Below, piece by piece: positions 22,009-44,907 of a stretch of 50,272 nt of DNA. This DNA is from Mycobacteriales bacterium. GTDB lineage: Bacteria > Actinomycetota > Actinomycetes > JALYNC01. Location: assembly GCA_038253225.1 (NCBI GenBank), contig JBBSHH010000004.1, positions 1 through 50,272 of the forward strand, read 5' to 3'. Position 1 is the first letter of the stretch. Each line of letters opens with the position of its first letter. The notes below the pieces were generated by a model, which saw only the letters and a list, made by a program, of their open reading frames with translations, did not search any database and had not been told where the DNA came from. A program made the position numbers and the translations under genes.

Positions 22009-22052
22009 CGCTGGCAGTATCGGTCACGCCGCGTCGGTTAGCCTCTCCAAGC

Positions 22053-22958: not shown

Positions 22959-23054
22959 CCCCGGCGGGGGTCGAGAGCCGGATGGCGCGCGCGGACCGGA
23001 ACCGAGGCGGACCGCGCCGCGTCCAAGCGGCACTGTCGATGCCGAGGAGAGCCG

Positions 23055-23840: not shown

Positions 23841-23880
23841 CCGGCGGTCGGCAGCGCACCGGGCCGCTAGCCTGCCCGCC

Positions 23881-24624: not shown

Positions 24625-24645
24625 GGGTCGCTCGGTCGGTCGGCC

Positions 24646-26121: not shown

Positions 26122-27206
26122 CGGACCGGCCGGCCCTTCCACCGCAGGGAACCGCGCCGGCGCAGCACCAGCGACCGGCCGGTGAGCGCGCACAGCATCA
26201 GCACCGACACCGGATGGGCCGCCGCGTCGGGGAACGTCCTTCCGCCGGTACGCCGGGCGGTGACGAGCCGGCCGGCGACCGCCGCGGCGTACCCGACGAT
26301 GCCGGCCCGGCTGCCCCGCAGCGCGGCCACCGGGGGGACGACGTAGAGCACCAGCAGCGCCGCGCAGGCTCCGACCGCGCCGGCCGGGGTGCCGAACCCG
26401 GCCCACAGCGACTTGGTGTACCCGTCGCGCAGCTCCGGCCAGCCGGCGTACATCCGGCAGCTGGCGACCGCGGTGCCGTCGGCGACGGCGCCCCGTAAAC
26501 CCCTTCGTTTGAAGGCCTTCAGCAGCTCGAGGTCGTCGAGGACGGCGGCCCGGACGGCGCCGTGCCCGCCGGTCGCACGGTAGGCCGCGGCGTCGACGGC
26601 GAGCAGCTGGCCGTTCGCGGCCGCCAGCGACGGGCGCGCCGACCGCTCGGCCGCCCGCAGCGGCAGGAACGTCAGCCACGACCACTGCAGCAGCGGCTGG
26701 ACCAGCCGTTCGGTGGCGGTCCCGGCGAGCTGCCGCGGGTACGGGCTGACCAGGTCCAGACCGGCGGCGCGCAGCAGGCCGACCGTGGCGGCGACCCCTG
26801 CCGGCGCGAGCACCACGTCGGCGTCGAGGAAGACCAGGACGGTTCCGGTGGCGGCGTCGGCGAGCTGCTGGCAGGCGTACGGCTTGCCGAGCCAGCCGGG
26901 CGGCAGCGCCCGGCCGGTGTGCAGTCGCAGTCGCGGGTCGCCGGCCCCCACCCGGCGTACGACCTCCGCCGTGCCGTCGGTCGAGCCGTCGTCGAGGACC
27001 AGCACCTCCAGGTCGGGCAGCAGCCGCTGGTCGAGAACCGAGCGCAGGCACGGCCCGACCCGGTGCGCCTCGTCGCGGACCGGCAGCAGCACCGACACCG
27101 GCTCGGCGACCGGCGCCGGCCGGGCCGGCGGCACCCGCAACAGCCGGGCGTTGACCGCCGCGTGCAGGCTGGCCACGGCCGCCCCGGCCGCGCCGGCGCG
27201 GACCAC
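26118..27206 (-). CDS. Family-2 glycosyltransferase (carotenoid glycosyltransferase candidate)
   Basis: A GT-A fold is recognisable (VSVLLPVRDEA..., LVLDDGSTDGT, LVFLDADV), followed by C-terminal TM helices. I assigned the start to the GTG at 27206, 8 nt after the upstream stop; the start is uncertain. Confidence 0.8.
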   Translation of the reverse strand: MVRAGAAGAAVASLHAAVNARLLRVPPARPAPVAEPVSVLLPVRDEAHRVGPCLRSVLDQRLLPDLEVLVLDDGSTDGTAEVVRRVGAGDPRLRLHTGRALPPGWLGKPYACQQLADAATGTVLVFLDADVVLAPAGVAATVGLLRAAGLDLVSPYPRQLAGTATERLVQPLLQWSWLTFLPLRAAERSARPSLAAANGQLLAVDAAAYRATGGHGAVRAAVLDDLELLKAFKRRGLRGAVADGTAVASCRMYAGWPELRDGYTKSLWAGFGTPAGAVGACAALLVLYVVPPVAALRGSRAGIVGYAAAVAGRLVTARRTGGRTFPDAAAHPVSVLMLCALTGRSLVLRRRGSLRWKGRPVR

Positions 27207-27214
27207 GGCCCGGC

Positions 27215-27991
27215 TCAGCGCCGCCACAGCCGCACCGCGAGCGGGACGGCGACGAGCCCCATGCCGAGGCCGCCGGCGAGCGCCACCGCCGGCCGGTGAA
27301 AGAACGCGAGGTTGGCCAGCACGGAGGAGGCGTAGGTCCACAGGTAGAGCGCCAGCGGTACGCCGTCGTCCGCGGCCGGCGCCGCGGCCGGCAGCAGCGC
27401 GGTCAGCCCGGCCATCATGGCCACCGCGGTCAGCGTCCAGCCCAGGAAGTTCGTCAGCGGCACCTCCGGGATGCCGGGGAGCGCGGCGCCGACGTCGGTC
27501 CATCGCCAGTGCCCGGCGGCCACCATCTGCGGGTCGAGGAAGAGGTCCCAGGCCGCCAGCGCCGCGCCGGCGACGAGCGCCCGGGACCACCGGCCGGCGA
27601 CGAGCCGGCGGGCCGCCAGCAGCGCGGGGTAGGCCATCATCGTCCAGGCCAGCGGGATCACCAGCGGAACGCCGAGCAGCCGCGGTCCGAGGGTCGCGGT
27701 GTAGGTGTAGGCGCCGAACGGGACGCCGGTGCGGGTGCCGACCGACTCGACGAGCAGCCCCGTACCGGCGGTCACCGTGACCAGGACAATGGTCCACCGC
27801 CGGCCGCGCCACACCGCGGCGTGGCTCACCGACGCCAGGAAGAACGTGACGACGGTCGCGACCGTGAGGGCGTCCCGGCCGGTTCCGTGCACCCGCGGGT
27901 AGCCGACCTCGAGCAGCACGGTGCCCGCCGCCAGCGTCACGGGGACCGGCCGCCGCCGGGTCCCGGCCGGGGCCGTCGCCGGGACCGTCAT
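27215..27991 (-). CDS. cruF: Carotenoid biosynthesis membrane protein, CruF-type 1',2'-hydratase family
   Basis: The ATG at 27991 overlaps the upstream stop (ATGA). It is a multi-TM protein with family motifs (TGVPFGAYTYTATLGPRLLGVPLVIPLAW, AAWDLFLDPQMVAAGHWRW). Confidence 0.7.
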   Translation of the reverse strand: MTVPATAPAGTRRRPVPVTLAAGTVLLEVGYPRVHGTGRDALTVATVVTFFLASVSHAAVWRGRRWTIVLVTVTAGTGLLVESVGTRTGVPFGAYTYTATLGPRLLGVPLVIPLAWTMMAYPALLAARRLVAGRWSRALVAGAALAAWDLFLDPQMVAAGHWRWTDVGAALPGIPEVPLTNFLGWTLTAVAMMAGLTALLPAAAPAADDGVPLALYLWTYASSVLANLAFFHRPAVALAGGLGMGLVAVPLAVRLWRR

Positions 27992-29601
27992 GGCCGCAAC
28001 TGCCGCAGCCGCCGCAACTGCCGCAGCCGCCCGCCCACCCGGCGCAGCGGGCTCGGGCTGCGGTCGGCGAGCAGCACCCGTGCGGCGCTGCGGCCGCTGG
28101 CACCGAACACCCCGCCACCCGGGTGGGTGGAGGCCCCGGTCAGGTACAGGCCCGGCACCGGCGTGCGGTAGCCGGCCAGCTCGGGCAGCGGTCGCCAGGC
28201 GAACATCGCGTCGAGGCCCATCTCGACGTGCATCACGTTGCCGCGCCGCAGCCCGAGCTCGCGCTCGAGGTCGAGCGGGGTCTGCACGTGCATCGCCTCG
28301 ACGCTGGCAGCGAAACCCGGTGCGGCCGCATCGACGGCCGCGACCAGCTTCTCGCCCTCGCGCTGCCGGATCCCGTCCCAGTCCTCCCCGTTGCTGAGCT
28401 GGTAGGGGTGCCACTGGCCCCAGACCGTGACGTTGTGCCGTCCGGCCGGCGCGAGCGTGTCGTCGAAGGCGCTGAACGTCATGGCCAAGGCCGCCGGCGC
28501 GGCCGGCGGCCGGCCGGCGACGAAGTCACCGTGCGCGCCGCGCAGGAACGTCCGGCTCGGGGCGAGCAGCTGCAGCGCCCGGTAGCTGCGCTCCTGCGCG
28601 GCCGGGTAGCGCGGCAGGTCACGGGTCGCCAGCCGAACCACCATCCCGATGCCGTTGCCGACCCGCACCGCGCTGCGGCCGCGGGCCAGCAGCCGCTGGT
28701 CGCCGAGCAGCTCGAGCGCGGTCAGGACGTGGCAGCCGGCCAGCACCGCGGTCGCGCCGATCCGCTCGCCGCCGGCGGTGAGCACCCCGCTCACCCGGTC
28801 CCCGCGACGGGTGATGCCGGTCACCGCGTCGCCGAGCCGCAGCGTGCCGCCGTACGACGCGAACCGGCGGGCCAGCGCGACCGAGAGCATGCCGGAGCCG
28901 CCGACCGGATGCCCCGGCGGGCGGCGGTGCAGCATGGTGTTCCAGCCGACGAGGTCGGCCGTGGCCACCTCGTGCGTCGGCGGCCCCGACTGGGCACCCA
29001 GCCAGGACAGCGCGGTCTTGAGCCGCTCGGAGTCGAAGTGCGCGTCGAGCAGCGCATCCGCGGGCTGCAGGAACTGCCGGGACAGCTCCAGGCCACCGAG
29101 GCCGGTGGCCTTGCCGACACCCCACAGCGACCGCCCGAGGTTCGCGACGGTCGGCGGGCTCTGGAACGCGCTGAAGATGCGGTCGTTGCGCGCCGCCCAG
29201 TCGGTGACAAAGGCGGCGTAGGCGTCGGCGTCGCGCGCCCCACAGACCGCGGCGATGGAGTCGCAGGTCTCGGCCAGGTCGACCGAGAACGTGATCGCGA
29301 CCTGCTCGTCGGCCACGCCGAACGGTGCGAACCCCCACGGGTCGAGGTCCTGGTAGACCAGGCCGCAGTCGGCCAGCGCGAGGTCCTCCACGATGCCGGT
29401 GTGCCGCACCATGATGTGCGCGGAGGACCCGACGTCCATCCGGTAGCCGGGGAACCGCTCCACTGTCGAGACCGCACCGCCGACGACATCGCGCCGCTCG
29501 ACCACCTCGACGTCGAGGCCGGCGCGGGCCAGGTAGCAGGCGGCGACCAGCGCGTTGTGGCCGGCGCCGACCACCACGACGTCGCGCGATGGGGCGCTCA
29601 T
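27988..29601 (-). CDS. CrtI-family FAD-dependent oxidoreductase (CrtO-type ketolase-like)
   Basis: 537-aa ORF with an FAD fold (VVVVGAGHNALVAACYLARAGLDVEVVERRDVVGGAV) and a C-terminal GLYLTGASTHPGGGVFG motif. It is the third CrtI paralog in the window. The function is inferred from size and context. Confidence 0.65.
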   Translation of the reverse strand: MSAPSRDVVVVGAGHNALVAACYLARAGLDVEVVERRDVVGGAVSTVERFPGYRMDVGSSAHIMVRHTGIVEDLALADCGLVYQDLDPWGFAPFGVADEQVAITFSVDLAETCDSIAAVCGARDADAYAAFVTDWAARNDRIFSAFQSPPTVANLGRSLWGVGKATGLGGLELSRQFLQPADALLDAHFDSERLKTALSWLGAQSGPPTHEVATADLVGWNTMLHRRPPGHPVGGSGMLSVALARRFASYGGTLRLGDAVTGITRRGDRVSGVLTAGGERIGATAVLAGCHVLTALELLGDQRLLARGRSAVRVGNGIGMVVRLATRDLPRYPAAQERSYRALQLLAPSRTFLRGAHGDFVAGRPPAAPAALAMTFSAFDDTLAPAGRHNVTVWGQWHPYQLSNGEDWDGIRQREGEKLVAAVDAAAPGFAASVEAMHVQTPLDLERELGLRRGNVMHVEMGLDAMFAWRPLPELAGYRTPVPGLYLTGASTHPGGGVFGASGRSAARVLLADRSPSPLRRVGGRLRQLRRLRQLRP

Positions 29602-29623
29602 CCGGCTCGAGTCTAGGGAGGGT

Positions 29624-30160
29624 TCAGCCGGTCGCCAGCGGCAGCCGGCTGCCCATCATGCAGTAGGGCTCGGTCATGCCGGGGAAGCAGAACCCGGTGC
29701 GCAGGTCGAGGAACCCGAGCGACCGGTAGAGCCGGCGGGCCCGGGTGTCGGCGTCCGCGGTGGACAGCACCGCGGTCCGCCCCGGCGCGTCGCTGAGCAG
29801 GTCGGTGAGCAGCCGGTGGCCCAGCCCCTGTCCCTGCCGGTCGGGCAGCACGTGGAGCTCGGCGACCTCGAAGGTGGTCGGCATCCACTCCGCCGAGACG
29901 GCCGGCTCCAACGCCCCGGCCACGACGTCGTGCCACCACTGCCCGGGCGCCCCGGGGAAGCCGTAGCCGAACCCGACCAGTGCGTCGGCGTCGACCGCGA
30001 GCAGGGACCGGAACCCGGGGTAGGTCGCGTGCCGCGCCACGATGTCCCGGCGCGGCCGGATGTCCGCCAGGCTCCGGCCCATCGCGAGCCGGTAGACCTC
30101 CAGCGACTCGTCGGCGTAGGGCTCGAAGCCGGACCCGTCGACCCGGCGGATGCCGGTCAC
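29624..30160 (-). CDS. GNAT family N-acetyltransferase
   Basis: The GTG at 30160 overlaps the upstream TAG by 1 nt; the track's longer N-terminal extension is rejected. The acetyl-CoA motif is present (LHVLPDRQGQGLGHRLL ... ARRLYRSLGF). Confidence 0.8.
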   Translation of the reverse strand: MTGIRRVDGSGFEPYADESLEVYRLAMGRSLADIRPRRDIVARHATYPGFRSLLAVDADALVGFGYGFPGAPGQWWHDVVAGALEPAVSAEWMPTTFEVAELHVLPDRQGQGLGHRLLTDLLSDAPGRTAVLSTADADTRARRLYRSLGFLDLRTGFCFPGMTEPYCMMGSRLPLATG

Positions 30161-30846
30161 TACCGGCCCTGCGGCGTTGGTCCGGTCAGGGCGACCGGCT
30201 CCCGGCCGTCGACGGTGCCGTGCGCGGCGACCACGGCGAATCTGGCGAAGAGCTCCTCGGCGTACCAGCGCTCCTCGGTGGTACGCCGGACCGCGACCTG
30301 ATGCGCCGGCCGCCGGTGCGCGAACTCGCGCAGTGCTGCGGCGCTGTCCCAGACGCTGAAGGTGCCCTGCAGCCCCACCGGCGCCTCCCCGACCCCGATG
30401 GCGAGGCGGAGCCCGTCGACCTCGTGCAGGTCGGCCGAGACCGGTGGCACCGCCCGCCAGAACGTGACCGCCTTGCGCGGCGCGATCCGGGCGCGGGTGA
30501 GCGCGGCAACCGGGCCGTCGTGGCGCACCGGCCGGGGGTCGCCGAACGGCTGCCGGCCGGACCAGCGGCCCCGGGACGCCAGCGGCCGCAGCTCGGCCCA
30601 CCACCGTTCGGTCGATATCCGACTCCACGACCGGGACACCGCGGAGTCATCGAAGCCGGCCGCGTCCTGCGCGCTCGCCCAGGTGGCCAGCAGGCCCCAG
30701 CGTCGAGGAGTGACGTCGCGGACGGTGAACGTTTCGCCGTCCCCGGTGCCGAGCAGCTTGGCGAACCGCAACCCGGGCAAGGCGCGCAGTCGAGCCCGGT
30801 CCCGCGCCATCCGCAGCACCGCGGTGCCGACATGCCGGCCGGGCAC
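30160..30846 (-). CDS. CrtA-like (spheroidene monooxygenase family) protein, carotenoid 2-hydroxylase/ketolase candidate
   Basis: 228-aa ORF from the first canonical start (GTG). It resembles CrtA as I recall it (GLRFAKLLGTGDGETF, WGLLATW, LRPLASRGRWSGRQPF). The true N-terminus probably lies further upstream (see findings). Confidence 0.6.
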   Translation of the reverse strand: MPGRHVGTAVLRMARDRARLRALPGLRFAKLLGTGDGETFTVRDVTPRRWGLLATWASAQDAAGFDDSAVSRSWSRISTERWWAELRPLASRGRWSGRQPFGDPRPVRHDGPVAALTRARIAPRKAVTFWRAVPPVSADLHEVDGLRLAIGVGEAPVGLQGTFSVWDSAAALREFAHRRPAHQVAVRRTTEERWYAEELFARFAVVAAHGTVDGREPVALTGPTPQGR

Positions 30847-30905
30847 GCCCCACAGGTGGATGGTGACGGCGCCCGGGACCGGCTCGGTCGGGCCGTCGCG
30901 GGAGG

Positions 30906-31154
30906 TCAGGGCCGGCCCGACCCGGAGGGGGAGGCGGTGGGGGCACCCTTGCCGTACTGCCGGTCGGCATCCTGCTCACCCTGGGCGGCGGTGTCGTCCC
31001 CCACGGTGGTGGTCGGGCCGGGCTCGGAGACCACCCCGTTGCGGGTGACGCTGTCCCCGTTTCCGCCGTTGGCGGCGCAGCCGGCCGCGGCGAGCGGAAG
31101 CAACGTGGCGGCGATGGCGGCGGCGAGGGCGCGAACCGGCGGGCGTGGCGTCAT
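30906..31154 (-). CDS. Small lipoprotein
   Basis: The internal ATG at 31154 gives MTPRPPVRALAAAIAATLLPLAAAGCAANGG, a signal peptide plus lipobox, followed by a low-complexity mature part. It is the first gene of the minus-strand operon. Confidence 0.55.
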   Translation of the reverse strand: MTPRPPVRALAAAIAATLLPLAAAGCAANGGNGDSVTRNGVVSEPGPTTTVGDDTAAQGEQDADRQYGKGAPTASPSGSGRP

Positions 31155-31328
31155 GGCCCCATGCATACCCGATGCCGGCCCTTCGATCAGCGACCGGCCC
31201 GCCGGCGGGCGCAGCGGCTGGCGGTCGCCGGTCACCGGTCACGCCGCCGCGGGCTCGGTGCCGAAGCGACAGCCGTCCCCAGCCGACGTTGACGGACCGT
31301 CCGTACCGGGGTGTACGCTTCCCATCGT

Positions 31329-31344
31329 TCGAACATATGTTCGA
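31329..31344. promoter_or_regulatory. LexA (SOS) box, perfect palindrome TCGAACATATGTTCGA
   Basis: It matches the actinobacterial LexA consensus TCGAAC-N4-GTTCGA exactly. It lies 9 nt downstream of a possible promoter (TTGACG at 31289-31294, 19-nt spacer, TACGCT at 31314-31319), in the divergent region upstream of the DUF6504 gene. Confidence 0.8.
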
Positions 31345-31570
31345 TCAGCCCGCGGCCGCCGCCCTCGCGGACGGTGCCGTAGGCAACCGGCTTCCCGGCC
31401 GGGCCGGCGGACCTCGACCCCTGCCGGGCCGGCCGGGATTCCGGCGCCGGTCCGGGTGGCACGTGGGGAAGCGTCTCACCCGGACCGGCGTCCGTCGCCG
31501 CCTTCCCCCGGCGACTCCGCCGCGGTCTCGACCCGAGGCTGCGGCCCGGAGCGAGCGGGGGGAGCGGCCC

Positions 31571-32005
31571 ATGACACGGCGATACGCCGACGCGGTCGAG
31601 GTGCAGCGGCGGGACGACGCGCCGGCCCAGTTCCTCTGGCGGCGCCGGCTCTACGTCGTGCGGGCGGTGCTCGCCCACTGGTTCGAGGCGGGCGGATGGT
31701 GGCGCGGCGTCGCGGCGGCCTCGGTGTTCGGAGAGAGCACAGCGCCGCCGGCCACCGCCGACCTCGTCCTCGCCCCGATCCCGCCAGCGCCGATGTGGGG
31801 GCAGCGGGCGTGGGGAGAGCCGGCCCCGGACGTCGGTGTCGCGGTCGGGTCCGCTGCCGTCGAGGACCGCGAGCGGGAGTACTGGCGGGTGGAGGCCGGC
31901 ACCGGGCAGGCGGCCGGCACCGGGCAGGCGGCCGGCACCGGGGTCTACGACCTGTGCTTCCACTGGTCCGTCGGCGGTTGGACCGTCGTCCGCGCGATCG
32001 ACTGA
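31571..32005 (+). CDS. DUF6504-like small protein
   Basis: 144 codons from the ATG at 31571, with GGGGGAG 7 nt upstream. The N-terminal motif is AQFLWRRRLYVVRAVLAHW and the C-terminal motif is YWRVEAG...GVYDLCFHWSVGGWTVVRAID. The family name is from memory of similar annotated neighbours of SAV_6107-type HEPN genes. Confidence 0.65.
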   Translation: MTRRYADAVEVQRRDDAPAQFLWRRRLYVVRAVLAHWFEAGGWWRGVAAASVFGESTAPPATADLVLAPIPPAPMWGQRAWGEPAPDVGVAVGSAAVEDREREYWRVEAGTGQAAGTGQAAGTGVYDLCFHWSVGGWTVVRAID

Positions 32006-32014
32006 GGAGAAGTC

Positions 32015-32485
32015 ATGACTCGGCCGATGCTGACCCGGCCCGCGCCCACCGGGGCGATGCCGGCCCGGCCCCGCCGCCCCGCCGCGGCCGCCGGTGCGCT
32101 GCTGGCCGCCGCCCGCCGTGGTCTGATCGAGGCCGCGGGGCTGCCGGCTCCTGGCGAGCGGTACGCCGCCGCGCACCTGGCCGCCCTGCGCACCGCCGCC
32201 GCGGTCCTCGCCGCCCGGGCCCAGCCGGAGACCGCGCCGCCCCGCCGCCGCCGGCCGACGAGCGCCTGGGTGTTGCTCACCGCGGTCGCGCCCGAGCTGG
32301 GGGAGTGGGCCGCGTTCTTCGCCGCCGGCGCGGCCAAGCGGGCGGCCGCCGAGGCGGGGCTGACCGGGGTGGTCACGACCCGGGAGGCCGACGACCTGGT
32401 CCGCGACGTCGAGACGTTTCTCGCCGTCGTCGACACCACGCTCGGGCTGCCCCACCAGCCGGTCCTGACCGGCCGTGCCGGCTGA
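32015..32485 (+). CDS. HEPN domain protein (SAV_6107-like family)
   Basis: 156-aa ORF with GAGGAGA 4 nt upstream of the ATG. It is all-helical and Ala-rich, with an Rx4H motif (R49-YAAA-H54) and a conserved-looking tail (VAPELGEWAAFFAAGAAKRAAAEAG...TREADDLVRDVETFL). Confidence 0.65.
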   Translation: MTRPMLTRPAPTGAMPARPRRPAAAAGALLAAARRGLIEAAGLPAPGERYAAAHLAALRTAAAVLAARAQPETAPPRRRRPTSAWVLLTAVAPELGEWAAFFAAGAAKRAAAEAGLTGVVTTREADDLVRDVETFLAVVDTTLGLPHQPVLTGRAG

Positions 32486-32487
32486 CT

Positions 32488-35400
32488 ATGTCCGACCCCT
32501 TCGTTCACCTCCACGTGGCGTCCGGCTACTCGCTGCGCTACGGCGCCTCCCATCCGCAGGTGCTTGTCCAGCGGGCCGCGGAGCACGGGATGGACACGCT
32601 GGCCCTGACCGACCGGGGCGGTGTGTACGGCGCTGTGAAGTTCGTCCAGGCGTGCTCCACGGCCGGGATCCGGCCGGTGCTCGGTGTCGATCTCGCCGTC
32701 GCCCCGCTCGAGCTCGACGCGCGCCGGTCGACCCCGAGCCGTGGCCCCGGCACCCGCCAGCCGGTTCGGGGCGGTGCTTTCGTCGACCTCGCCTCGGCCC
32801 GGGTGACGGTGCTCGCCCGCGACGTGCGGGGCTGGGCGTCGGTGTGCCGGCTGGTCAGCGCCACCCACCTCACCGGCGAGCGCGGCACGCCGGTGAGCTC
32901 GCTGGACCTCCTCGCCGCGCACGCGGCCGGTGTGTTCGTGCTGCTCGGCCCGGGGTCGGAGGTCGGCCGGGCGCTGGCGGCGCGCCGGCTCGACCTGGCG
33001 CGGGCCCACCTCGACCGCTGGCGCGCCGTCCTCGGTGACGACGTCCTGCTCGAGGTCGTCCATCATCGCGGCGCCGGTGACGCCACCCGGGCGGCCCGGA
33101 TGCTGGGACTGGCCGCGGCCGCCGGGGTCGGGGCGGTGCTCACCAACGCGGTGCGCTACGCCGACCGGGCCGACGCGCCGACCGCCGATGTCCTCGACGC
33201 CGCCCGCCGGCTCGTCGTCCTCGACCCGCGCCACGTCGACCGGACGACGGCGGAGGGTGCCTTGAAGTCCGGCAAGGAGATGGCCGAGGTCGCCGACGAG
33301 GTCGCGACGATGGCCGGCACCGGACCGGCCGGCCGGCGGGAGCTGCTGGCCCGGACCCGGCGCGTCGCCGAGCAGTGCGCGCTGCCGCGCGGCACCGGCG
33401 GGCTCGGCATCGGTGAGATCCACTTCCCCGAGCTCGAGGTGACCGGCGGAGCCGGGTCGCTGGTCGGGTCGGCGGCCGCGGACGCCGTCCTGCGGGAACG
33501 CTGCACGGTCGGGTTCGGCCGGCGCGGGATGCCGGCGTCGGGCGCAGCGCTGCGTCGGCTCGACGCCGAGCTCGAGGTCATCCGTGGCCTGGGCTACCCG
33601 TCGTACTTTCTCACGGTCGGGGACGTCGTCGAGCTCATCAAGAGCATGGGGGTGCGGTGTGCCGCCCGCGGCTCCGGCGCCGGCAGCCTGGTCACCTACC
33701 TGCTGGGGATTTCCGACGTCGACCCGATCGAGCACGGGCTGGTGATGGAGCGGTTTCTCTCGCCGCTGCGGCACGCGCTGCCCGACATCGACATCGACGT
33801 CGAGTCGGCCCGCCGGACCGAGGTCTATACGGCGATCCTCGAGCGGTACGGCGGGGACCGGTGCACCTGCGTGTCGATGATGGACACCTACCGCGCCCGG
33901 CACGCCATCCGCGACGTCGGCGCCGCCCTCGGGCTGCCACCGAACGAGATCGACACCGTGGCCAAGGCGTTTCCGCACATCCGGGCGAGCCAGGTCCGGG
34001 CGGCGCTGCGCGACCTGCCGGAGCTGCAGGTCAGTGGTCTGGGCGCCGGCCGGCTCGACCTGCTGTTCCGTCTCGTCGAGCGGCTGGACGGGCTGCCCCG
34101 CCACATCGCCCTGCATCCGTGCGGGGTGCTGCTCTCCGACACCTCCCTGCTCGACCGCACCGCGGTGGAGGCGAGTTGGCTGGGCTTCCCGATGAGCCAG
34201 TTCGACAAGGACGACGTCGAGGCGCTCGGGCTGCTCAAGCTCGACGTGCTCGGCATCCGGATGCAGTCCGCGATCTCCCATGCCCTGGGGGAGGTGCGCC
34301 GGGTGGACGGCGTCGATGTCGACATCGACCGGATCTCCCGCGCCGACCCGGCGACGTTCGCGCTGGTCCAGTCCACCCGCACGCTCGGGTGCTTCCAGAT
34401 CGAGTCCCCCGGTCAGCGCGAGCTGGTCGGGAAGTTCGCGCCGGAGACGTTCGGCGACCTCATCATCGACATCTCGCTGTTCCGCCCGGGGCCGGTGAAG
34501 AGCGACATGGTCACCCCGTTCCTCGAGGCCCGACAGGGCTGGCGGCGGGTGGAGTACCTGCACCCGGACCTGCAGCCGGTCCTCGAGGAGACCTCTGGTG
34601 TGGTCGTCTTCCACGAGCAGGTGCTGCGGATGGTCTCGATCCTGACCGGTTGCACGTTGGCCGAGGCCGACGAGGTACGACGGGCGCTGGGCGATCCGCT
34701 CGGGCAGCCGGAGGTGCGGGTGTGGTTCGTCCCCGCGGCGCTGGGTCGGGGCTACCACCTCGACATGGTCGAGCGGGTGTGGGAGGTGCTCAAGGCCTTC
34801 GCCTCGTTCGGTTTCTGCAAGGCGCACGCGGCCGCGTTCGCCGTCCCGACCTACCAGTCGGCCTGGCTCAAGGCGCACCATCCGGCGGCGTTCCTCGCCG
34901 GCGTGCTGACCCACGACCCCGGCATGTATCCCAAGCGGCTGATCCTCGACGACGCGCGGCAGTTCGGTATCGCCGTCCTGTCGCTCGACGTCAACCGGTC
35001 CGACGCCGAGTACCGGGTCGAGCGGGTCGGGATCTTCGACGAGCCGCCGCCCGCGATCCTCGACGCCCCCCCACGGGACCGGCCGGCGAACGGCCCGGAC
35101 GCCCGCCGGTACGGCATCCGGCTCGGCCTGGCCGAGGTCAAGGGCAGCACCGACGCGGAGGTGGCCCGGATCATGGCCGGGCGGCCCTATGCCTCGCTGG
35201 CCGACTTCTGGCACCGGGCCGCGGTCTCCCGCCCGATCGCCGAACGGCTCGTCGTGGCCGGCGGCTTCGACGAGATCTACGGTCTGGGCTCGGCCGTGCC
35301 GGTTCGCCGGCGCGGCCAGGTCACCCGCCGCGACCTGCTGCTCCAGGTCGCCGAGCTCGACGCCTGGACCCGGTCCCGCGCGCGGCCGGGACGCCGGGCC

Positions 35401-36210
35401 GCAGCGGGGCAGCGCCCGGGCGCGAACCAGCCGGCCGACGTCCGCACTCTTGCCGCGCGCCAGTCCCAGGCGGCTCGGCCGGTCCAGCCGGTCGACGTCC
35501 AGCTCACCCTCGACCTCGGCGACACCCCGGCCGAGACCCGTCCGTCCGGGCTGCCGGAGATGACCGACGCGGAACGGGTCAGGGCCGAGCTCGACGTCCT
35601 CGGGCTCGACGCCAGCCGGCACGTCATGGACTTCTACGCGCGGTTCCTCTCCGCCGTCGGCATCACCCGGGCGCGCGACCTGGTCCGGTGCCGCAGCCGG
35701 TCCGACGTCCTGGTCGCCGGGGTCAAGGTGGCCACCCAGACACCGCCGATCCGTTCCGGTCGGCGGGTCGTCTTCGTCACGCTCGACGACGCCACCGGCC
35801 CGCTGGACGCGACGTTCTTCGAAGACGCGCAGAGCGGGTACGCCGCGACCCTGTTCCATTCCTGGCTGCTCGTCATCCGCGGCACGATCCGTCGCACCGG
35901 ACCGCGCGGAGTCTCGATGCGGGCCAGCGGCTGCTGGGAGCTCCCCCGGCTGCGGGCGGAGTGGGAGACCGGCGGCCTGCCCGCGGTGTGGACGGCCATG
36001 ACGGCGCCCCCGATCCGGAGCGAGCTCGCGCTGCACGGCGCGGCGGAGAGCCGCTCCACCCGTCCGGTGATGGCCGACCCGCCGCCCGCAGCGCTGGTCT
36101 ATCCGAGCGGGTTCGCGCTCTCGCCGTACGCCGACATCACGCCGGCCGGGGCCGGCAGCGCGCCCCCGCGCCGGCTCTGGCACGCCAGCCCGGGCAGTGC
36201 CGGTGGCTAG
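32488..36210 (+). CDS. dnaE2: C-family DNA polymerase (Pol III alpha homolog), DnaE2-like / error-prone type with degenerate PHP domain
   Basis: 1240 codons from the ATG at 32488, 2 nt after the HEPN stop. The PHP N-terminus reads FVHLHVASGYSLRYGAS...LALTDRGGVYGAVKF. The catalytic palm motifs are intact (LPDIDIDVES, SQFDKDDVEALGLLKLDVLG). An OB-fold is present (VLVAGVKVATQTPPIRSGRRVVFVTLDDATGPLDATFF). There is no long tau-binding C-terminal domain. The subclass (dnaE2 versus a separate paralog) is uncertain. Confidence 0.85.
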   Translation: MSDPFVHLHVASGYSLRYGASHPQVLVQRAAEHGMDTLALTDRGGVYGAVKFVQACSTAGIRPVLGVDLAVAPLELDARRSTPSRGPGTRQPVRGGAFVDLASARVTVLARDVRGWASVCRLVSATHLTGERGTPVSSLDLLAAHAAGVFVLLGPGSEVGRALAARRLDLARAHLDRWRAVLGDDVLLEVVHHRGAGDATRAARMLGLAAAAGVGAVLTNAVRYADRADAPTADVLDAARRLVVLDPRHVDRTTAEGALKSGKEMAEVADEVATMAGTGPAGRRELLARTRRVAEQCALPRGTGGLGIGEIHFPELEVTGGAGSLVGSAAADAVLRERCTVGFGRRGMPASGAALRRLDAELEVIRGLGYPSYFLTVGDVVELIKSMGVRCAARGSGAGSLVTYLLGISDVDPIEHGLVMERFLSPLRHALPDIDIDVESARRTEVYTAILERYGGDRCTCVSMMDTYRARHAIRDVGAALGLPPNEIDTVAKAFPHIRASQVRAALRDLPELQVSGLGAGRLDLLFRLVERLDGLPRHIALHPCGVLLSDTSLLDRTAVEASWLGFPMSQFDKDDVEALGLLKLDVLGIRMQSAISHALGEVRRVDGVDVDIDRISRADPATFALVQSTRTLGCFQIESPGQRELVGKFAPETFGDLIIDISLFRPGPVKSDMVTPFLEARQGWRRVEYLHPDLQPVLEETSGVVVFHEQVLRMVSILTGCTLAEADEVRRALGDPLGQPEVRVWFVPAALGRGYHLDMVERVWEVLKAFASFGFCKAHAAAFAVPTYQSAWLKAHHPAAFLAGVLTHDPGMYPKRLILDDARQFGIAVLSLDVNRSDAEYRVERVGIFDEPPPAILDAPPRDRPANGPDARRYGIRLGLAEVKGSTDAEVARIMAGRPYASLADFWHRAAVSRPIAERLVVAGGFDEIYGLGSAVPVRRRGQVTRRDLLLQVAELDAWTRSRARPGRRAAAGQRPGANQPADVRTLAARQSQAARPVQPVDVQLTLDLGDTPAETRPSGLPEMTDAERVRAELDVLGLDASRHVMDFYARFLSAVGITRARDLVRCRSRSDVLVAGVKVATQTPPIRSGRRVVFVTLDDATGPLDATFFEDAQSGYAATLFHSWLLVIRGTIRRTGPRGVSMRASGCWELPRLRAEWETGGLPAVWTAMTAPPIRSELALHGAAESRSTRPVMADPPPAALVYPSGFALSPYADITPAGAGSAPPRRLWHASPGSAGG

Positions 36211-36315
36211 CGGCGCCGCCGCGGCGCGGCCGCCGTCACTAGGCTGCCGGTGCCGGCGGCCCGGGCCGGCCCACACCGCCCGCACCCGCGTTCACGCCGC
36301 CCGAGGAGGACAGTG

Positions 36316-37080
36316 GTGGACCGCCTGCGGTCCCGCACCTCGGTGCGAACCGCCGTCGTCTGGGAGGTGCTCCGCGCCGCGCTGGCCGAGCAGTTTCCCG
36401 GCTCCGACCCGGCGGCCCCGGCGCCGCTCGACATCCTCGACGCGGGCGGTGGCAGCGGCGGCTTCGCCGTCCCGCTCGCCCAGCTCGACCACCGGGTCAC
36501 CGTCGTCGACCCGAGCCCCGACTCGCTCGCCGCCCTGCGGCGTCGCGCCGCCGAGGCCGGCGTCCGGACGCCGGTGCGGGCGGTGCAGGGCGACTTCGCC
36601 AACCTGCACGTGGTGGTGCCGGCCGCCAGCTACGACGTGGTGCTCTGTCACAGCGTGTTCGAGGTCGTCGAGGACCCCGCGGCGGCGATGGCGGCCGTCA
36701 CGGCTGCGCTACGGCCGGGTGGACTGGTCAGCATCCTGGCCGCGAACCGGACCGCCGCCGTGGTCGGCCGAGCGGTCGCCGGGCACTTCGCGGACGCCCG
36801 TCGCATCCTCACCGACCCCACCGGGCGGTGGGGTGACGGTGACGCGTTGGTGCGCCGGTTCACCGTCGCCGAGGTCGCCGGGCTCGCCGCCGCCGCCGGT
36901 TTGGTGGTCGGCCCGGTCCACGGCATCCGGGTGTTCACCGATCTCGTCCCGGGCGGCCTGCTCGACGCCGACCCGGAGGCCGCCGCGGCGCTGCTGGGTC
37001 TCGAGCACGCCGTCACCGGTCGGTCGGAGTTTCTGGGGCTGGCAACCCAGCTGCACCTGCTCGCCTCGCGGCCACGGTGA
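36316..37080 (+). CDS. Class I SAM-dependent methyltransferase
   Basis: SAM-binding motif I is present (ILDAGGGSGGFAVPLA), with an acidic post-I residue (VTVVDPS). I preferred the GTG at 36316, 5 nt after AGGAGGA, over the track start at 36250. Confidence 0.75.
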   Translation: MDRLRSRTSVRTAVVWEVLRAALAEQFPGSDPAAPAPLDILDAGGGSGGFAVPLAQLDHRVTVVDPSPDSLAALRRRAAEAGVRTPVRAVQGDFANLHVVVPAASYDVVLCHSVFEVVEDPAAAMAAVTAALRPGGLVSILAANRTAAVVGRAVAGHFADARRILTDPTGRWGDGDALVRRFTVAEVAGLAAAAGLVVGPVHGIRVFTDLVPGGLLDADPEAAAALLGLEHAVTGRSEFLGLATQLHLLASRPR

Positions 37081-37083: not shown

Positions 37084-38358
37084 GTGAGCCGGGGCCAGCT
37101 TCGCCCGACCGGTCGCCCGACCGGACCGCCGGGCGACGACACCGGCTGCTACGTGCTGCATGTCGACATGGACGCCTTCTACGCCAGCGTCGAGCTGCGG
37201 TCCCGTCCGGAGCTGCGCGGCCGGCCGGTGATCGTGGGCGGGAGCGGGACCCGGGGCGTGGTGCTCTCGGCGACGTACGAGGCGCGGGCCTTCGGGGTCC
37301 ACAGCGCGATGCCGATGATGCGGGCGCGGCGGATGTGCCCGACTGCCATCGTGCTGCCGCCCCAGTTCGACCGCTACCAGCAGGCCTCGGCGGGCGTCAT
37401 GGAGGTGTTCCGGTCGGTGACGCCGCTGGTCGAACCGATCGCGCTCGACGAGGCGTTCCTCGATGTGCGTGGCGCCCGGCGGCGGCTGGGCGGTCCGGCG
37501 CAGATCGGGGAGTGGGTCCGGGCCCGCATCGCCGACGAGCAGGAGATCACCTGCTCGGTCGGGGTGGCGGCGACGAAGTTCGTCGCGAAGCTGGCGAGCA
37601 CCCGGTGCAAGCCGGACGGCCTGCTGGTCGTCCCGCGCACCGGCGTGGTGGCCTTCTTGCACCCGCTGCCCGTCGGCGCGCTCTGGGGAGTCGGTGAACG
37701 TACCGAGGAGTCGCTGGTCCGGCTCGGGCTGCGGACCGTCGGGGACATCGCGCATACGCCGCTGCGAACCCTGCAGCGGGTGGTCGGGCCGGCCGTCGGG
37801 GAGCACCTCTACGGGTTGGCCTGGGGTCGGGACGAGCGGCGGGTCGTGCCGCACGAACCGGAGAAGAGCATCGGTGCGGAGGAGACGTTCGGCCGCGACG
37901 TCGACGACCCGGCCGTGATCCACCGCGAGCTGCTGCGGCTCAGCGAACGGACGGCCGCGCGGCTGCGGGCGGCCGGGCAGGTCGGCCGCACGGTCAGCAT
38001 CAAGGTCCGGTTCGCCGATTTCACCACGATCACCCGGGCCCGCAGCCTCACCGACGCGACCGACGTCGGTCGCGAGATCTACACGGTCGCGCGATCCCTG
38101 TTCGACGCCCTCGGTCTGCAGCGGGCCCGGCTCCGACTGGTCGGCGTCCGGGTGGAGGGGCTGCGACCGGTGGCCACCACCCCCCGCCAGCTGCTGCTCG
38201 ACGAGCGGCCGCAGGGCTGGCGGGAGGCCGAGCTGGCGGTCGACCGAGCCAGCCGGCGCTTCGGCGCGGGGACGGTCCGACCCGCCGCCCTGGTGCGGTT
38301 CGACGACGACGACGACGCCGCCCCGCCGATGCCCCCCGGACCGCTGCGTCCCGACTGA
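37084..38358 (+). CDS. dinB: DNA polymerase IV (Y-family)
   Basis: 424-aa ORF whose GTG lies 3 nt after the methyltransferase stop. DinB motifs are present (LHVDMDAFYASVE, SATYEARAFGVHSAMP, LDEAFLDV, SVGVAATKFVAKLAS). Confidence 0.9.
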   Translation: MSRGQLRPTGRPTGPPGDDTGCYVLHVDMDAFYASVELRSRPELRGRPVIVGGSGTRGVVLSATYEARAFGVHSAMPMMRARRMCPTAIVLPPQFDRYQQASAGVMEVFRSVTPLVEPIALDEAFLDVRGARRRLGGPAQIGEWVRARIADEQEITCSVGVAATKFVAKLASTRCKPDGLLVVPRTGVVAFLHPLPVGALWGVGERTEESLVRLGLRTVGDIAHTPLRTLQRVVGPAVGEHLYGLAWGRDERRVVPHEPEKSIGAEETFGRDVDDPAVIHRELLRLSERTAARLRAAGQVGRTVSIKVRFADFTTITRARSLTDATDVGREIYTVARSLFDALGLQRARLRLVGVRVEGLRPVATTPRQLLLDERPQGWREAELAVDRASRRFGAGTVRPAALVRFDDDDDAAPPMPPGPLRPD

Positions 38359-38617: not shown

Positions 38618-39007
38618 GTGCCGCTCTCTGAGCACGAGCAGCGCCTGCTCGATCAGATCGAGCGCGCCCTCTACGCCGAGGACCCCAAGTTCGCCACCTC
38701 CGTGCGGGCAACCGACCTTCGCAGCCACTACCGGCGGCGGATCGTCCGCTCGGTCGTGCTGTTCGTGCTGGGTTTCGCCCTGCTCTTCGTCGGCGTGATC
38801 AGCAAGATCGCGCCGGTCGGTGTCGGCGGTTTCCTGGTCATGCTGTTCGCCCTGTTCTGGGGCCTCACCAGCTGGCAGCGGTTGGCGGGGAACAAGGACG
38901 CGCGCACCCCCCGACGCCGGGCCCCGGCCGTCAAGACGCCGCGGGCGTCGGTGATGTCGCGGTTGGAGGAGCGGTGGCGACGTCGCTGGGAGGAACGCGG
39001 CCGCTAG
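38618..39007 (+). CDS. DUF3040 domain membrane protein (Rv2169c-like)
   Basis: I took the GTG at 38618, with GGGAGGAG 5 nt upstream. The typical N-terminus PLSEHEQRLLDQIERALYAEDPKFA is followed by two TM helices. Confidence 0.8.
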   Translation: MPLSEHEQRLLDQIERALYAEDPKFATSVRATDLRSHYRRRIVRSVVLFVLGFALLFVGVISKIAPVGVGGFLVMLFALFWGLTSWQRLAGNKDARTPRRRAPAVKTPRASVMSRLEERWRRRWEERGR

Positions 39008-39018
39008 TCGCCGCCCGC

Positions 39019-39100
39019 TCCTGCTGGTAGCACCGGCTTGCTGGTAGCACCGCTTGCTGGCGGCACCGCTTCCCGGCAGCACCGCTTCCGGGCAGCACCG
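39019..39100. repeat. Degenerate 16-bp tandem repeat, about 5 units (CTTGCTGGTAGCACCG-like)
   Basis: The units are CTTGCTGGTAGCACCG, CTTGCTGGCGGCACCG, CTTCCCGGCAGCACCG and CTTCCGGGCAGCACCG, preceded by a partial unit. The array lies in the convergent intergenic region between the DUF3040 and transglutaminase genes. Confidence 0.7.
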
Positions 39101-39138
39101 CTCGGCTCTGGCGTCAGCCCGCCTGGCCCGGCGGACCC

Positions 39139-41580
39139 TCAGCCGACCGGCCGGCTGCGCAGCACCAGTGACCGCAGCCGGGCACCCGTGCGGTCCACCG
39201 CGTCCAGTACGTCGGCGAGCCCGGCGGCGACGACGCGGACCCGGGTCAGCGCGGAGCTCGGGAACAGCCGCGCCCGCCAGCGCCGCCGCCGGCCGGCGGC
39301 CGCGGCGAGCGCCGCCCGGACGGCAGCGACGGCCTTCGCAAGCTCGTCAAGGACCGCGTCATCGAGCGGGAGCCCGCCGTCGGAGCGGGCATAGCGGGCC
39401 CGCTCCTCAAGGGCGACGAGCCTCCCGACCGCGGTCGCCGCCGGCCCCGTCAGCCCGGCCGCACCGACCAGGGCCGCGCCGGCCCGCCGGGGCGACGCGG
39501 CGCGCGACCAGCCGCGGCCGAAGTCCCGGGCGTCGTCACGCAGCTCGGACCAGGCCGCGTGCGCCGCCGCCGCCGGCGTCCGAGCGGTCGCCCACCGCCG
39601 CCGCCGAACGATCCGACGGCCGGTGCTCGGTGCCGCCAGCAGCAGGGCGAGAACCATCAGGCCAGCGAGGAGCCAGCCCAGCCGAGACGAGCGGTTCTTG
39701 CCGATGTTGGCGTCCAACGCCGGGCCGGTGGGGCGCACGCAGATGCGTTCGACGGTGTACTTCCGGCTCGGGCACTCGTCGATGGTGTCCCGCTGGGTAA
39801 GCGCGTCGAGCTTGTTGTTGCGGCTGGCGGCACCGGCCGCGCCGCTGCCGTTCGCCGCCCCTGGGTCGCTGACCGTCCCGGTCGGGCCGACGACGCTATA
39901 GGTCGGGGTGACCGCGCGCCCCTGGCCGCCGAGCGGCGTCGGCTCGAAGGGCAGCCAGCCGGCGCCGGCGAAGTACAGCTCCGGCCATGCGTGCGCGTCC
40001 GCCGTGGTCACCGACCAGCTTCCGTCCTTGCGCCTCTCGCCGCGGGTGAAGCCGATCGAGACCCGGGCCGGAATGCCCTCGATCCGCGCGAAGATCGCCA
40101 TCGCGGCGGCGAACTGCTCGCAGTACCCGCGCTTGAACTGGATGAAGTTGTCGAGGTCCCGGTTGGAGTTGCCGCGGGGGACGCTGACGTCGTAGCTGAA
40201 GGAGGTGCGGAAGTAGTTCTGGATCGCCACCGCCTTGTCGTAGGCGGTCGGCTTGTTTCGCGTGATGGTGTCGACCAGGGTCTGCACGCTCTCGGAGATG
40301 TTCGTGGGCAGCTCGACGAACGGGCTCAGCGACTCGTCCGGCACCGCTGCCTGCCGCAGCATCTCCGGGTCCGGCGCCACCTTGCGGCTGAACACGGTGA
40401 TCTTGAGCTTCCGGGTGCTGGCCCGGCTGGAGAAGATGGTCTGGGTGGCGGCGTCGTACCGCCAGTCGCCCTTGGCCTTCGCGGTCGTCGGCGGGTACGG
40501 CGTCGGCAGCCAGTGGACGTCGAGGTTGTCGACCTTGATGGTCGTCCGGACCCGCGCGCTGGGGGTCAGCTTGTTGTCCAGGCCGGCCGGCGCCGGCATG
40601 CCGTCGGCGATCCGGGACCGCTTGCCGCCGGAGAGCGAGGACTCCGACCACGTCGTCCCGTTGTAGCGGTCCAGCGCCGCCATCCGGATGTAGCCGGGGT
40701 CGCGGTCGCTGGTCGTGACCCGCATCAGCTCCTTGGGCGTCCGGCGCTCGAGGTAGCCCTTGAGCGCCACGATCGGGTTGAAGGTCGTCACCGAGTTCGA
40801 GCCGTTGCCCGTGGGCAGGCCGCCGCCGGAGCCGCCGAAGACGCCGCCGGAGAGCCCCGGCACCAAGGCGGGGAGGAACAGCGCCACACCGACCGCGGCG
40901 GCGCCGATCCGTCGGCCGACGGCCGCCAGCGGAGAGGTCTCGGCGTGCTCCTCGGCGTCGGGAGTGACCGCCGTGACGGCTCGACCGAGCCCGAGCGGTC
41001 GTCCCCAGCGGCCCAGCCGGTCCCGGCCCTCGGCGAGCAGCAGCGCGAGGAAGCCCCCGGCGGAGAGCACGAACGGCAACCATCCGACGCCATTCGGCAC
41101 GACCGCCGACGGCACCGCGAACAGCGCGAGCAACGGCAGCCCGGCGAGCGCCGCCCGGCGCAGGGTGACGGCCAGCAGATCCACCAGCAGCGCGACCGCG
41201 GCCACGCCGGCGACTGTGATCAGCACCATCCCGGTGTTGGTCGGGACCGGAGCCGCGAGCAGCCGCATGTCGGAGAAGCCCTGCGACACCTCGGCCGAGA
41301 GGCTGCGCACCGCGGCCGCGTCGGGCAACACGCCGCCGATCGCCGTGTCCGAGGCGAACACCGCCGTGAGGTAGCCGAAGACCGTCACCACGGTCAGCAG
41401 CGGGGCCAGCAGGACCGGCACGGCGAAGCGGCGGCACAGCTCACCGATACCCGCCACCAGCAGCACCGCGCCGGCCACCGGCAGGACCCACGCCAGGGAG
41501 TCGTACGCCGCCCCCAGCGAGGAGGCGCCGAGCAGCGTGGCCAGCGCCGCGAACAGGCACAACCGGGTTCGGCTGGTCAT
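39139..41580 (-). CDS. Transglutaminase-domain membrane protein (TgpA/DUF3488-like)
   Basis: The ATG at 41580 overlaps the DUF58 stop (ATGA). An N-terminal multi-TM region is followed by a transglutaminase core (GYCEQFAAAMAIFARIEGIPARV ... ADAHAWPELYFAGAGWLPFEPT) and a C-terminal TM plus tail. Confidence 0.85.
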   Translation of the reverse strand: MTSRTRLCLFAALATLLGASSLGAAYDSLAWVLPVAGAVLLVAGIGELCRRFAVPVLLAPLLTVVTVFGYLTAVFASDTAIGGVLPDAAAVRSLSAEVSQGFSDMRLLAAPVPTNTGMVLITVAGVAAVALLVDLLAVTLRRAALAGLPLLALFAVPSAVVPNGVGWLPFVLSAGGFLALLLAEGRDRLGRWGRPLGLGRAVTAVTPDAEEHAETSPLAAVGRRIGAAAVGVALFLPALVPGLSGGVFGGSGGGLPTGNGSNSVTTFNPIVALKGYLERRTPKELMRVTTSDRDPGYIRMAALDRYNGTTWSESSLSGGKRSRIADGMPAPAGLDNKLTPSARVRTTIKVDNLDVHWLPTPYPPTTAKAKGDWRYDAATQTIFSSRASTRKLKITVFSRKVAPDPEMLRQAAVPDESLSPFVELPTNISESVQTLVDTITRNKPTAYDKAVAIQNYFRTSFSYDVSVPRGNSNRDLDNFIQFKRGYCEQFAAAMAIFARIEGIPARVSIGFTRGERRKDGSWSVTTADAHAWPELYFAGAGWLPFEPTPLGGQGRAVTPTYSVVGPTGTVSDPGAANGSGAAGAASRNNKLDALTQRDTIDECPSRKYTVERICVRPTGPALDANIGKNRSSRLGWLLAGLMVLALLLAAPSTGRRIVRRRRWATARTPAAAAHAAWSELRDDARDFGRGWSRAASPRRAGAALVGAAGLTGPAATAVGRLVALEERARYARSDGGLPLDDAVLDELAKAVAAVRAALAAAAGRRRRWRARLFPSSALTRVRVVAAGLADVLDAVDRTGARLRSLVLRSRPVG

Positions 41581-42872: not shown

Positions 42873-42874
42873 GG

Positions 42875-43894: not shown

Positions 43895-44126
43895 CGGACC
43901 TCCTACCGCGCAACCGGCCCAGCGGCCGCTGACCCGTCCGGGCCAGTGTGACAGGTGCCGGCGGGCTGGTCAGTGCCTGCGACCAACCCGTAACCGTTAC
44001 CTCCCGTTGACCGTGCGGCGCCCCGCGCCCCGCGGCATCCTCGCGTCCCGGCCGGTCCGGGGACACCGGTTGGCGGTAGGGCGCGCCCCGCAGGCGGCGC
44101 GGCGCTGGGACATCCGGCTGTTGTAT

Positions 44127-44172
44127 GTGGGGCAAAGTGGAGTACAGTGGTGCCAGGTGGAGGACGGAGTGG
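44127..44172 (+). promoter_or_regulatory. Candidate MraZ operator: GTGG repeats with 10-bp phasing
   Basis: GTGGGgcaaaGTGGAgtacaGTGGTgccagGTGGAggacggaGTGG. Four repeats are spaced exactly 10 bp apart, with a fifth at 12 bp. The array overlaps a possible promoter (TTGTAT at 44121-44126, 16-nt spacer, TACAGT at 44143-44148) and ends 44 nt before the mraZ start. Confidence 0.6.
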
Positions 44173-44215
44173 CACGCCGGCCGTTCATCGAGAACCGAGG
44201 AGAGGCGGCGGGTCG

Positions 44216-44647: not shown

Positions 44648-44907
44648 CCGGCCCCTCCAGGCCGATCCCGCGCCGATACGTCGAGCGAGGTCTCCGACCG
44701 CTCCGACACGCACCTGACGCACCTTCCCCGGCGCCAGGTGCGGAGCGGGCGGGGACCTGGCCCGACGTCTCCGGACCCCTCGCCGCCATGCCGCCGAGCG
44801 TCCATCCGGGACACCACCCGCCCGGGAGCGGGGACCGCACCCCTGCCCGCGGGCCTCGCACTGCTGGAGGGCACCGCCGATTCCGCACCACCGTCCAGGG
44901 GGTCGAG

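Follow-up and report, generated by a model that had tools for sequence, protein, structure and literature searches.

A DnaE2B-type polymerase with a degenerate PHP metal site and a clamp-type motif in a LexA-boxed actinobacterial operon with a split ImuB

The stretch of actinobacterial DNA analysed here (contig JBBSHH010000004.1 of a Mycobacteriales bacterium; 50,272 nt with 75% G+C; hereafter the window) contains on its forward strand, at 32488..36210, a gene for a 1240-aa paralog of the DNA polymerase III alpha subunit. Based on Pfam, NCBIfam, homologs and published DnaE2B sequences, we assign the protein with high confidence to DnaE2B and the locus to the DnaE2B-PolY-ImuB-C-RecA system. DnaE2B is probably the catalytic subunit of a LexA-repressed translesion and mutagenesis operon that consists of imuB-C, a HEPN gene, dnaE2B, a methyltransferase gene and polY. 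A preliminary description of the gene had seen in it a polymerase-competent, proofreading-dead paralog. The sequence supports this view, as seven ligands of the PHP metal site are lost and the three catalytic aspartates are kept. This combination is typical of the DnaE2 family and is thus a known hallmark rather than an unusual feature. It had also been proposed that imuB could be missing because the polymerase has a clamp motif built in. This proposal is unsupported and had overlooked two neighbours: the window encodes the functions of ImuB in split form, with ImuB-C two genes upstream of dnaE2B (31571..32005) and PolY two genes downstream (37084..38358). Judged by its sequences, the locus is a split ImuB and not a polymerase that does without ImuB.

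Three groups of DnaE2 have been distinguished (NAR 2026, PMC12926913): DnaE2A, which goes with ImuA and ImuB; DnaE2B, which occurs in genomes without imuA and imuB; and a small third group, DnaE2X. The DnaE2B-PolY-ImuB-C-RecA system has been described in Actinobacteria only, as a putative mutasome. Its representatives are Kineococcus radiotolerans, Janibacter indicus, Nocardioides euryhalodurans, Ornithinimicrobium pratense and Tessaracoccus lapidicaptus, and AlphaFold tetramer models cover Janibacter, Kineococcus, Nocardioides and Tessaracoccus (PMC12926913). All three components in the window are orthologous to those of the published system, and the gene order is the same. The polymerases have in common a dead-PHP N-terminus of the form FVHLHVASGYS...LTDR.G...LTNAVRY, and over its N-terminal 400 aa the window protein shares 58% identity with N. 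euryhalodurans DnaE2B (QBR90836). Membership of the DnaE2B clade was judged by identity over these first 400 aa and not by a formal tree; the sequences in the published supplement (PMC12926913) extend to about 400 aa only. The best matches come from uncultured Frankiales- and Mycobacteriales-type genomes (70–80% identity), and the identity to DnaE2B from named genomes is only about 55–72%. Pfam recognizes the domains PHP, DNA_pol3_alpha, finger, HHH_6 and OB. A sequence search of solved structures returned DnaE1 of Taq, E. coli and M. tuberculosis as the closest matches; only DnaE1 structures and no DnaE2 template were matched. Among the NCBIfam models, the polymerase passes only the superfamily model TIGR00594. 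It reaches 665 bits against the DnaE1 model (cutoff 1002) and 659 bits against the 'error-prone DNA polymerase' model NF004225 (cutoff 939). As both scores are under their cutoffs, NCBIfam is undecided between DnaE1 and DnaE2, and we therefore assigned the class by gene context and by orthology to published sequences. We suspect that these two models may miss the DnaE2B clade.

In the PHP domain (32488..33390, forward strand), alignments and ortholog sets show that the trinuclear metal site is destroyed. We mapped the ligands by alignment to M. tuberculosis DnaE1 (7pu7/5lew), Taq and E. coli alpha, and scored the nine published ligand positions (E. coli 10, 12, 19, 44, 69, 83, 134, 201 and 203; consensus HHDHEHCDH; PMC12926913). 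At these positions DnaE2B has H9, A11, Y18, R43, D68, R105, P155, A221 and R223. Compared to M. tuberculosis DnaE1, one ligand is identical (H14 to H9) and one is changed conservatively (E73 to D68). The remaining seven are lost: H16 to A11, D23 to Y18, H48 to R43, H107 to R105, C158 to P155 or a gap, D226 to A221 and H228 to R223. Three former histidine positions are now invariant arginines. The three substitutions that had been named initially (second His to Ala, Asp to Tyr and the His of TDH to Arg) are thus correct by alignment, and four more ligands are lost as well. Across 120 close orthologs, and likewise across 78 sequences from named genomes (55–72% identity), the ligand pattern shows essentially no variation; it is therefore a fixed state and not a sequencing error. 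It is also present in Nonomuraea and in plasmid copies of Streptomyces, at 46–52% identity. Because a single D23N or D226N change abolishes the exonuclease of M. tuberculosis (PMC5636811), the residues of DnaE2B make an active PHP nuclease very unlikely. With arginine at three former histidine positions and the metal site gone, no intrinsic proofreading is expected. Disrupted PHP sites are the rule in DnaE2, with the exception of the M. tuberculosis clade, where they are mostly intact (PMC12926913, PMC3919608). In published AlphaFold models of ImuB-DnaE2, the ImuB-C beta-barrel docks mainly on the PHP domain of DnaE2 (PMC12926913), which suggests a structural role for the inert, arginine-filled PHP fold.

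The polymerase active site is intact, as had been described for the palm acidic motifs. By alignment to E. coli alpha, the palm aspartates D433 and D435 (PDIDID) and D586 (KLDVLG), encoded at 33784..34245 on the forward strand, correspond to D401, D403 and D555. All three are invariant in both ortholog sets. Beyond the OB fold (aa 1074–1148) no Pfam domain and no tau-binding C-terminal domain is found in DnaE2B; the latter domain is absent from every DnaE2 (PMC3919608). The 92-aa tail that follows the OB fold is mostly of low pLDDT (predicted local distance difference test) in an AlphaFold2 model. Ortholog alignments show that it ends in the motif R[KR]LWH[SA]SPGS[SA]G(G) (aa 1228–1240, 36169..36207, forward strand). 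The R[KR]LWH[SA]SPGS[SA]G core is invariant in Frankiales, Nocardioidaceae, Intrasporangiaceae and Nonomuraea, and its Streptomyces counterpart, RRLGHRSPGSAG, is recognizable. A second conserved motif, GF..SPYAD[IV]KPAG, is found upstream of it at aa 1208–1221. Both C-terminal motifs are probably partner-binding peptides, and the terminal one could be equivalent to the SRDF[H/R] motif at the C-terminus of other DnaE2s (PMC3919608).

The five genes of the operon are packed tightly on one strand, and a LexA (SOS) box lies ahead of them. The box, TCGAACATATGTTCGA, is located at 31329..31344 on the forward strand, with the start codon of imuB-C following 226 nt downstream, and is the sole perfect TCGAACN4GTTCGA match within the window. 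Scans for sigma-70 promoters and intrinsic terminators found none across the operon. To estimate the conservation of the locus, we counted its elements in 80 related loci from GTDB species representatives, which span several actinobacterial orders, with Frankiales, Acidothermaceae, Geodermatophilaceae, Nocardioidaceae, Intrasporangiaceae and Jiangellales among them. ImuB-C was counted with a hidden Markov model built from published ImuB-C sequences. A LexA box is present upstream of the cassette in 69 of the 80 loci, and the sequence thus indicates that the operon is under SOS (LexA) regulation. An ImuB-C open reading frame (ORF) was detected in 76 loci, and the remaining four have at most about 1.5 kb of sequence upstream of dnaE2. 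PolY is encoded downstream in 70/80, the HEPN gene occupies the same position in 74/80 and the methyltransferase gene lies between dnaE2B and polY in 66/80. In four Geodermatophilaceae loci (L038, L044, L045 and L052, from Geodermatophilus, Trujillonella and Blastococcus) we observed another perfect LexA box some 10 kb beyond dnaE2B, at about +9.4 to +10.7 kb relative to the start of dnaE2. A displaced polY follows this second box in three of the four (not in L038), which suggests that the SOS control moved together with the gene.

The two genes that supply the parts of ImuB flank the polymerase. The first encodes a standalone ImuB-C of 144 aa (31571..32005, forward strand), which is recognized as Pfam DUF6504 at 1.8e-13 and matches the published Kineococcus ImuB-C (ABS04681; PMC12926913) at E=6e-16 in a BLASTP search. 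Within imuB-C there is a perfect 18-nt tandem repeat of 2.7 copies (31894–31942), which duplicates AGTGQA inside the conserved RVEAG..G..GVYDL segment; this insertion is absent in the Kineococcus ortholog. The second gene, at 37084..38358 on the forward strand, encodes a Pol IV-like Y-family polymerase (NF003015, 408 bits against a cutoff of 367) that is 72% identical to Kineococcus PolY (ABS04677) of the published system. It is catalytically intact by its residues, with the DMD and DE residues invariant in 64/64 orthologs. As in the published system, the PolY that appears active also has a RecA-NT-like motif (aa 379–404, 38218–38295, forward strand): at its C-terminal end the protein has a strongly conserved segment, WREAELAVDRASRRFGAGTVRPAAL, with resemblance to the N-terminus of RecA. 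Ahead of it lies a clamp-type motif, QLLLDE (aa 369–374, 38188–38205, forward strand), in the peptide PRQLLLDERPQGW. The family form of this motif is QLxL[GD]E, with an invariant GW five residues on, at the place where ImuB has QLPLWG. It reads as a degenerate clamp-type motif, in which positions 5 and 6 are both occupied by non-hydrophobic residues. The ImuB-C gene and a PolY with clamp-type and RecA-NT-like motifs would together supply the ImuB functions in split form. PolY has no fused ImuB-C, which is encoded as a separate protein, so that the locus differs from the canonical ImuA-ImuB-DnaE2 (DnaE2A) type.

DnaE2B has a clamp-type motif of its own. The hexapeptide QLTLDL (aa 1005–1010), already noted in the preliminary description, is indeed encoded at 35500..35517 on the forward strand. 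It lies in the context VDVQLTLDLGD and matches the QLxLxL-type hexapeptide consensus for beta-clamp binding. Its position had been equated with that of the internal clamp motif of replicative alpha subunits, and the alignment agrees: E. coli QADMF (aa 920–924) also aligns to this linker, immediately ahead of the E..LG..S/T.H segment. The motif is conserved in orthologs, with the family consensus QL[ATS][LF][DE]L-GD. Among the 78 sequences from named genomes, Q is kept in 76, the first L in 77, L/F in 77 and the last L in 76. For the family consensus, the Q and L columns are 88–98% identical. The linker that precedes it ranges from 2 to 74 residues among orthologs, and the motif thus forms a conserved island in an indel-rich linker. 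We used an AlphaFold2 model of residues 821–1240, solely as an indicator of disorder. In this model QLTLDL lies in coil with a pLDDT of about 33, and the surrounding linker is probably disordered. The indel-rich linker and the coil fit an exposed motif, yet the model is weak overall (mean pLDDT 57), and the disorder is for this reason suggestive only and does not prove exposure. Taken together, we somewhat favour the interpretation that QLTLDL is a clamp-binding motif. Since the PolY motif is non-hydrophobic at both position 5 and position 6, the DnaE2B motif fits the hexapeptide consensus better, and DnaE2B may be the main clamp tether in this variant.

Alternatively, QL[AT]LDL might bind something other than the clamp, either as a docking peptide for the PolY thumb, RecA, ImuB-C or HEPN, or as an intramolecular element. 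Conservation is as high at the acidic position 5 and in the GD that follows as at the hydrophobic positions, more than a clamp consensus would call for. Furthermore, in published models the adjacent (HhH)2 domain forms a second interface between DnaE2 and ImuB (PMC12926913). However, the motif sits exactly at the position of the DnaE1 internal clamp motif, it matches QLxLx[LF] as in Hda, and related DnaE2B proteins carry QLPLGF at the linker motif. We thus consider a role other than clamp binding unlikely.

A further possibility is that DnaE2B is a self-sufficient error-prone polymerase in which its own QLxLxL motif replaces ImuB, so that no ImuB-like accessory factors are needed. The strong conservation of the motif and its better fit to the consensus compared to the adjacent PolY motif would agree with this, as would the absence of canonical imuA and imuB: neither of these, nor recA, was found among the genes of the 50-kb window scanned against Pfam or NCBIfam. 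Yet ImuB-C lies upstream and an apparently active PolY with a RecA-NT-like motif downstream in the large majority of the loci counted above, both under one LexA box, and published multimer models join these proteins in one complex (PMC12926913). Clamp-type motifs at this site moreover occur also in DnaE2s that do work with ImuB. About 85% of DnaE2s have one at this linker position, including PLPLF and xLPLF in ImuB-associated proteobacterial DnaE2s, and QLPLx, often extended to QLPLxL, was noted in some actinobacterial DnaE2s in 2014 (PMC3919608). The motif therefore does not go with the absence of ImuB, which further weakens the earlier idea that it replaces imuB. For the contrast between DnaE2A and DnaE2B at this site we rely on what PMC3919608 reports. 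We regard a self-sufficient polymerase as quite improbable and retain the split ImuB.

That the gene is instead the replicative DnaE1 of an organism with DnaQ proofreading, its dead PHP domain being an E. coli-like state, can practically be dismissed: the DnaE1 score is marginally above the error-prone score and E. coli alpha likewise has Arg at two ligand positions, but both scores are far under their cutoffs, the tau-binding domain is missing, a LexA box, imuB-C and polY accompany the gene, and it is orthologous to DnaE2B of genomes that each also have DnaE1. Compared to E. coli Pol III alpha, DnaE2B has the same fold and catalytic triad and a motif in the equivalent linker, where E. coli has its internal clamp motif QADMF. 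The E. coli PHP domain is partly degenerate, with four of the nine ligands kept. Unlike DnaE2B, E. coli alpha has epsilon proofreading and a tau-binding domain, is essential and is not SOS-regulated.

Several points weigh against our interpretation of the locus as a mutagenesis operon whose polymerase contacts the clamp. The DnaE2B system is known without any biochemically characterized member, and a dnaE2 mutant of S. coelicolor is without phenotype (PMC3919608, citing Tsai 2012). The polymerase scores below both the DnaE1 and the error-prone NCBIfam cutoffs. Clamp binding is inferred from a short motif, and the DnaE2B of Streptomyces plasmids has QLALGG there, which lacks the last hydrophobic residue. 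The low overall confidence of the AlphaFold2 model means that linker disorder is suggested and not shown. Finally, our view ends at 50 kb, and the presence of dnaE1 and the absence of imuA and imuB across the rest of the genome lie beyond it.

Under the split-ImuB interpretation, the operon could act as follows. DNA damage would lead to cleavage of LexA and thereby to expression of the operon. Going by published models of homologs, the inert PHP domain would serve as the docking surface for the ImuB-C beta-barrel, and PolY would bind RecA via its RecA-NT-like motif. We propose that QL[AT]LDL in the disordered linker could tether DnaE2B directly to the beta-clamp cleft, and that the weaker PolY motif QLxL[GD]E possibly uses the other clamp cleft. 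The outcome would be error-prone, clamp-dependent synthesis past lesions by two active error-prone polymerases. DnaE2-type mutasomes drive damage-induced mutagenesis and the evolution of drug resistance in Actinobacteria, and the ImuB-less DnaE2B variants have so far been described computationally only. The locus is a clean SOS-boxed example with two apparently active polymerases and a split ImuB, and is otherwise largely an ordinary member of a catalogued system.

Two genes of the operon are additional to the published components. Between imuB-C and dnaE2B, a gene at 32015..32485 (forward strand) encodes a 156-aa SAV_6107-type HEPN protein (Pfam HEPN_SAV_6107 at 3.2e-37), and its stop lies 2 nt ahead of the dnaE2B start. 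No RxxxxH motif is visible in its translation, and the catalytic motif is not conserved in the SAV_6107-type HEPN family (PMC3710099). A homolog search returned only close relatives, and tblastn against plasmids gave no match for the HEPN protein. The gene is absent from a subset of Nocardioidaceae loci, from Nonomuraea and from the Streptomyces plasmid cassettes. Between dnaE2B and polY, a gene at 36250..37080 (forward strand) encodes a class I S-adenosylmethionine (SAM)-dependent methyltransferase (Pfam Methyltransf_11/25/12). The description of the published DnaE2B system includes neither these two genes nor the LexA box and the QL[AT]LDL motif. Neither HEPN nor the methyltransferase came up in the main text and supplements searched for PMC12926913 or in the PMC6511836 text, and the literature searched never names HEPN together with ImuB-C or DnaE2. 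In Tessaracoccus both genes are apparently absent, going by consecutive accession numbers. A tentative, and rather doubtful, extension of our interpretation is that in Frankiales, Nocardioidaceae, Intrasporangiaceae and relatives the DnaE2B operon on the chromosome encodes a machine of five or six components, instead of the published complex of four. It would include a non-catalytic, translationally coupled HEPN protein and a SAM methyltransferase, and would have DnaE2B, not the Y-family subunit, as the principal clamp tether. If true, clamp contact shifts from an ImuB-like module to the C-family polymerase. The HEPN gene, the methyltransferase gene and the C-terminal motif of DnaE2B are leads and not findings.

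When comparing the locus to the mycobacterial ImuA'-ImuB-DnaE2 mutasome, we find a common plan with different parts. Both have an SOS-inducible-type second PolIII alpha without the C-terminal domain (for the window, SOS control is read from the LexA box alone), and both combine this polymerase with a Y-family module, a RecA-like partner and the beta-barrel of ImuB-C. A QLxL-type motif for clamp contact is likewise common to them; in mycobacteria it is 352-QLPLWG-357 of ImuB, and in the window such contact is predicted. The mycobacterial ImuB is one catalytically dead protein that joins PolY, RecA-NT and ImuB-C, and ImuA' is present. In the window, in contrast, PolY is active by its residues, ImuB-C is separate and there is no imuA in view. 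The PHP metal site of DnaE2B is destroyed, whereas it is mostly intact in the DnaE2 clade of M. tuberculosis (PMC3919608). The initial comparison with mycobacterial DnaE2 is thus inexact, as the mycobacterial clade belongs to DnaE2A and the window protein to DnaE2B.

The Streptomyces DnaE2-DinB2 pair (DnaE2B-iPolY-RecA; DnaE2 and DinB2 in S. coelicolor) belongs to the same DnaE2B clade, with about 46% identity between the window protein and the plasmid copies. Common to both are the dead-PHP pattern, the C-terminal R.L.H.SPGS.G and a polY directly downstream, and on Streptomyces plasmids lexA is found near the DnaE2B-polY pair. The Streptomyces loci differ in that the partner PolY is inactive, that there is no ImuB-C or HEPN gene and that the linker motif is shortened to QLALGG.

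The bounds of dnaE2B were fixed by codon-position GC bias and trimming of the ORF. The coding bias starts near 32488 and the translation opens with MSDPFVHLH. Two longer frames were rejected. A 2076-aa ORF at 29980..36210 (forward strand) is a high-GC artefact that runs into dnaE2B, and a 1446-aa antisense ORF at 31945–36285 (reverse strand) is a GC-rich open frame; both are without codon-position bias. As these long artefact frames overlap real genes, they could mislead automated gene callers.

Lastly, we looked at the genomic surroundings. A 694-aa ORF at 2566–4650 (forward strand) has good coding bias and no Pfam match at E<=1e-6. The cassette lies within a conserved region that is found upstream of the dcw cluster; this region covers 38618–50120 and 6812–16387. 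It includes SCO2097/DUF3040, TgpA, DUF58, a MoxR AAA+ protein, mraZ, a PBP and murE, together with an Rv2175c-like regulator and a PASTA Ser/Thr kinase, and its gene order resembles Rv2166c-Rv2176 of M. tuberculosis. MTHFR is also part of these surroundings. Adjacent to the region, a carotenoid biosynthesis cluster extends over about 16384–30846, with MTHFR and other genes interspersed. It encodes two lycopene cyclase subunits, phytoene synthase, a phytoene desaturase-type oxidase and a polyprenyl synthetase, together with a Caroten_synth protein, a glycosyltransferase, a CrtO-like ketolase and a spheroidene-monooxygenase-like protein.

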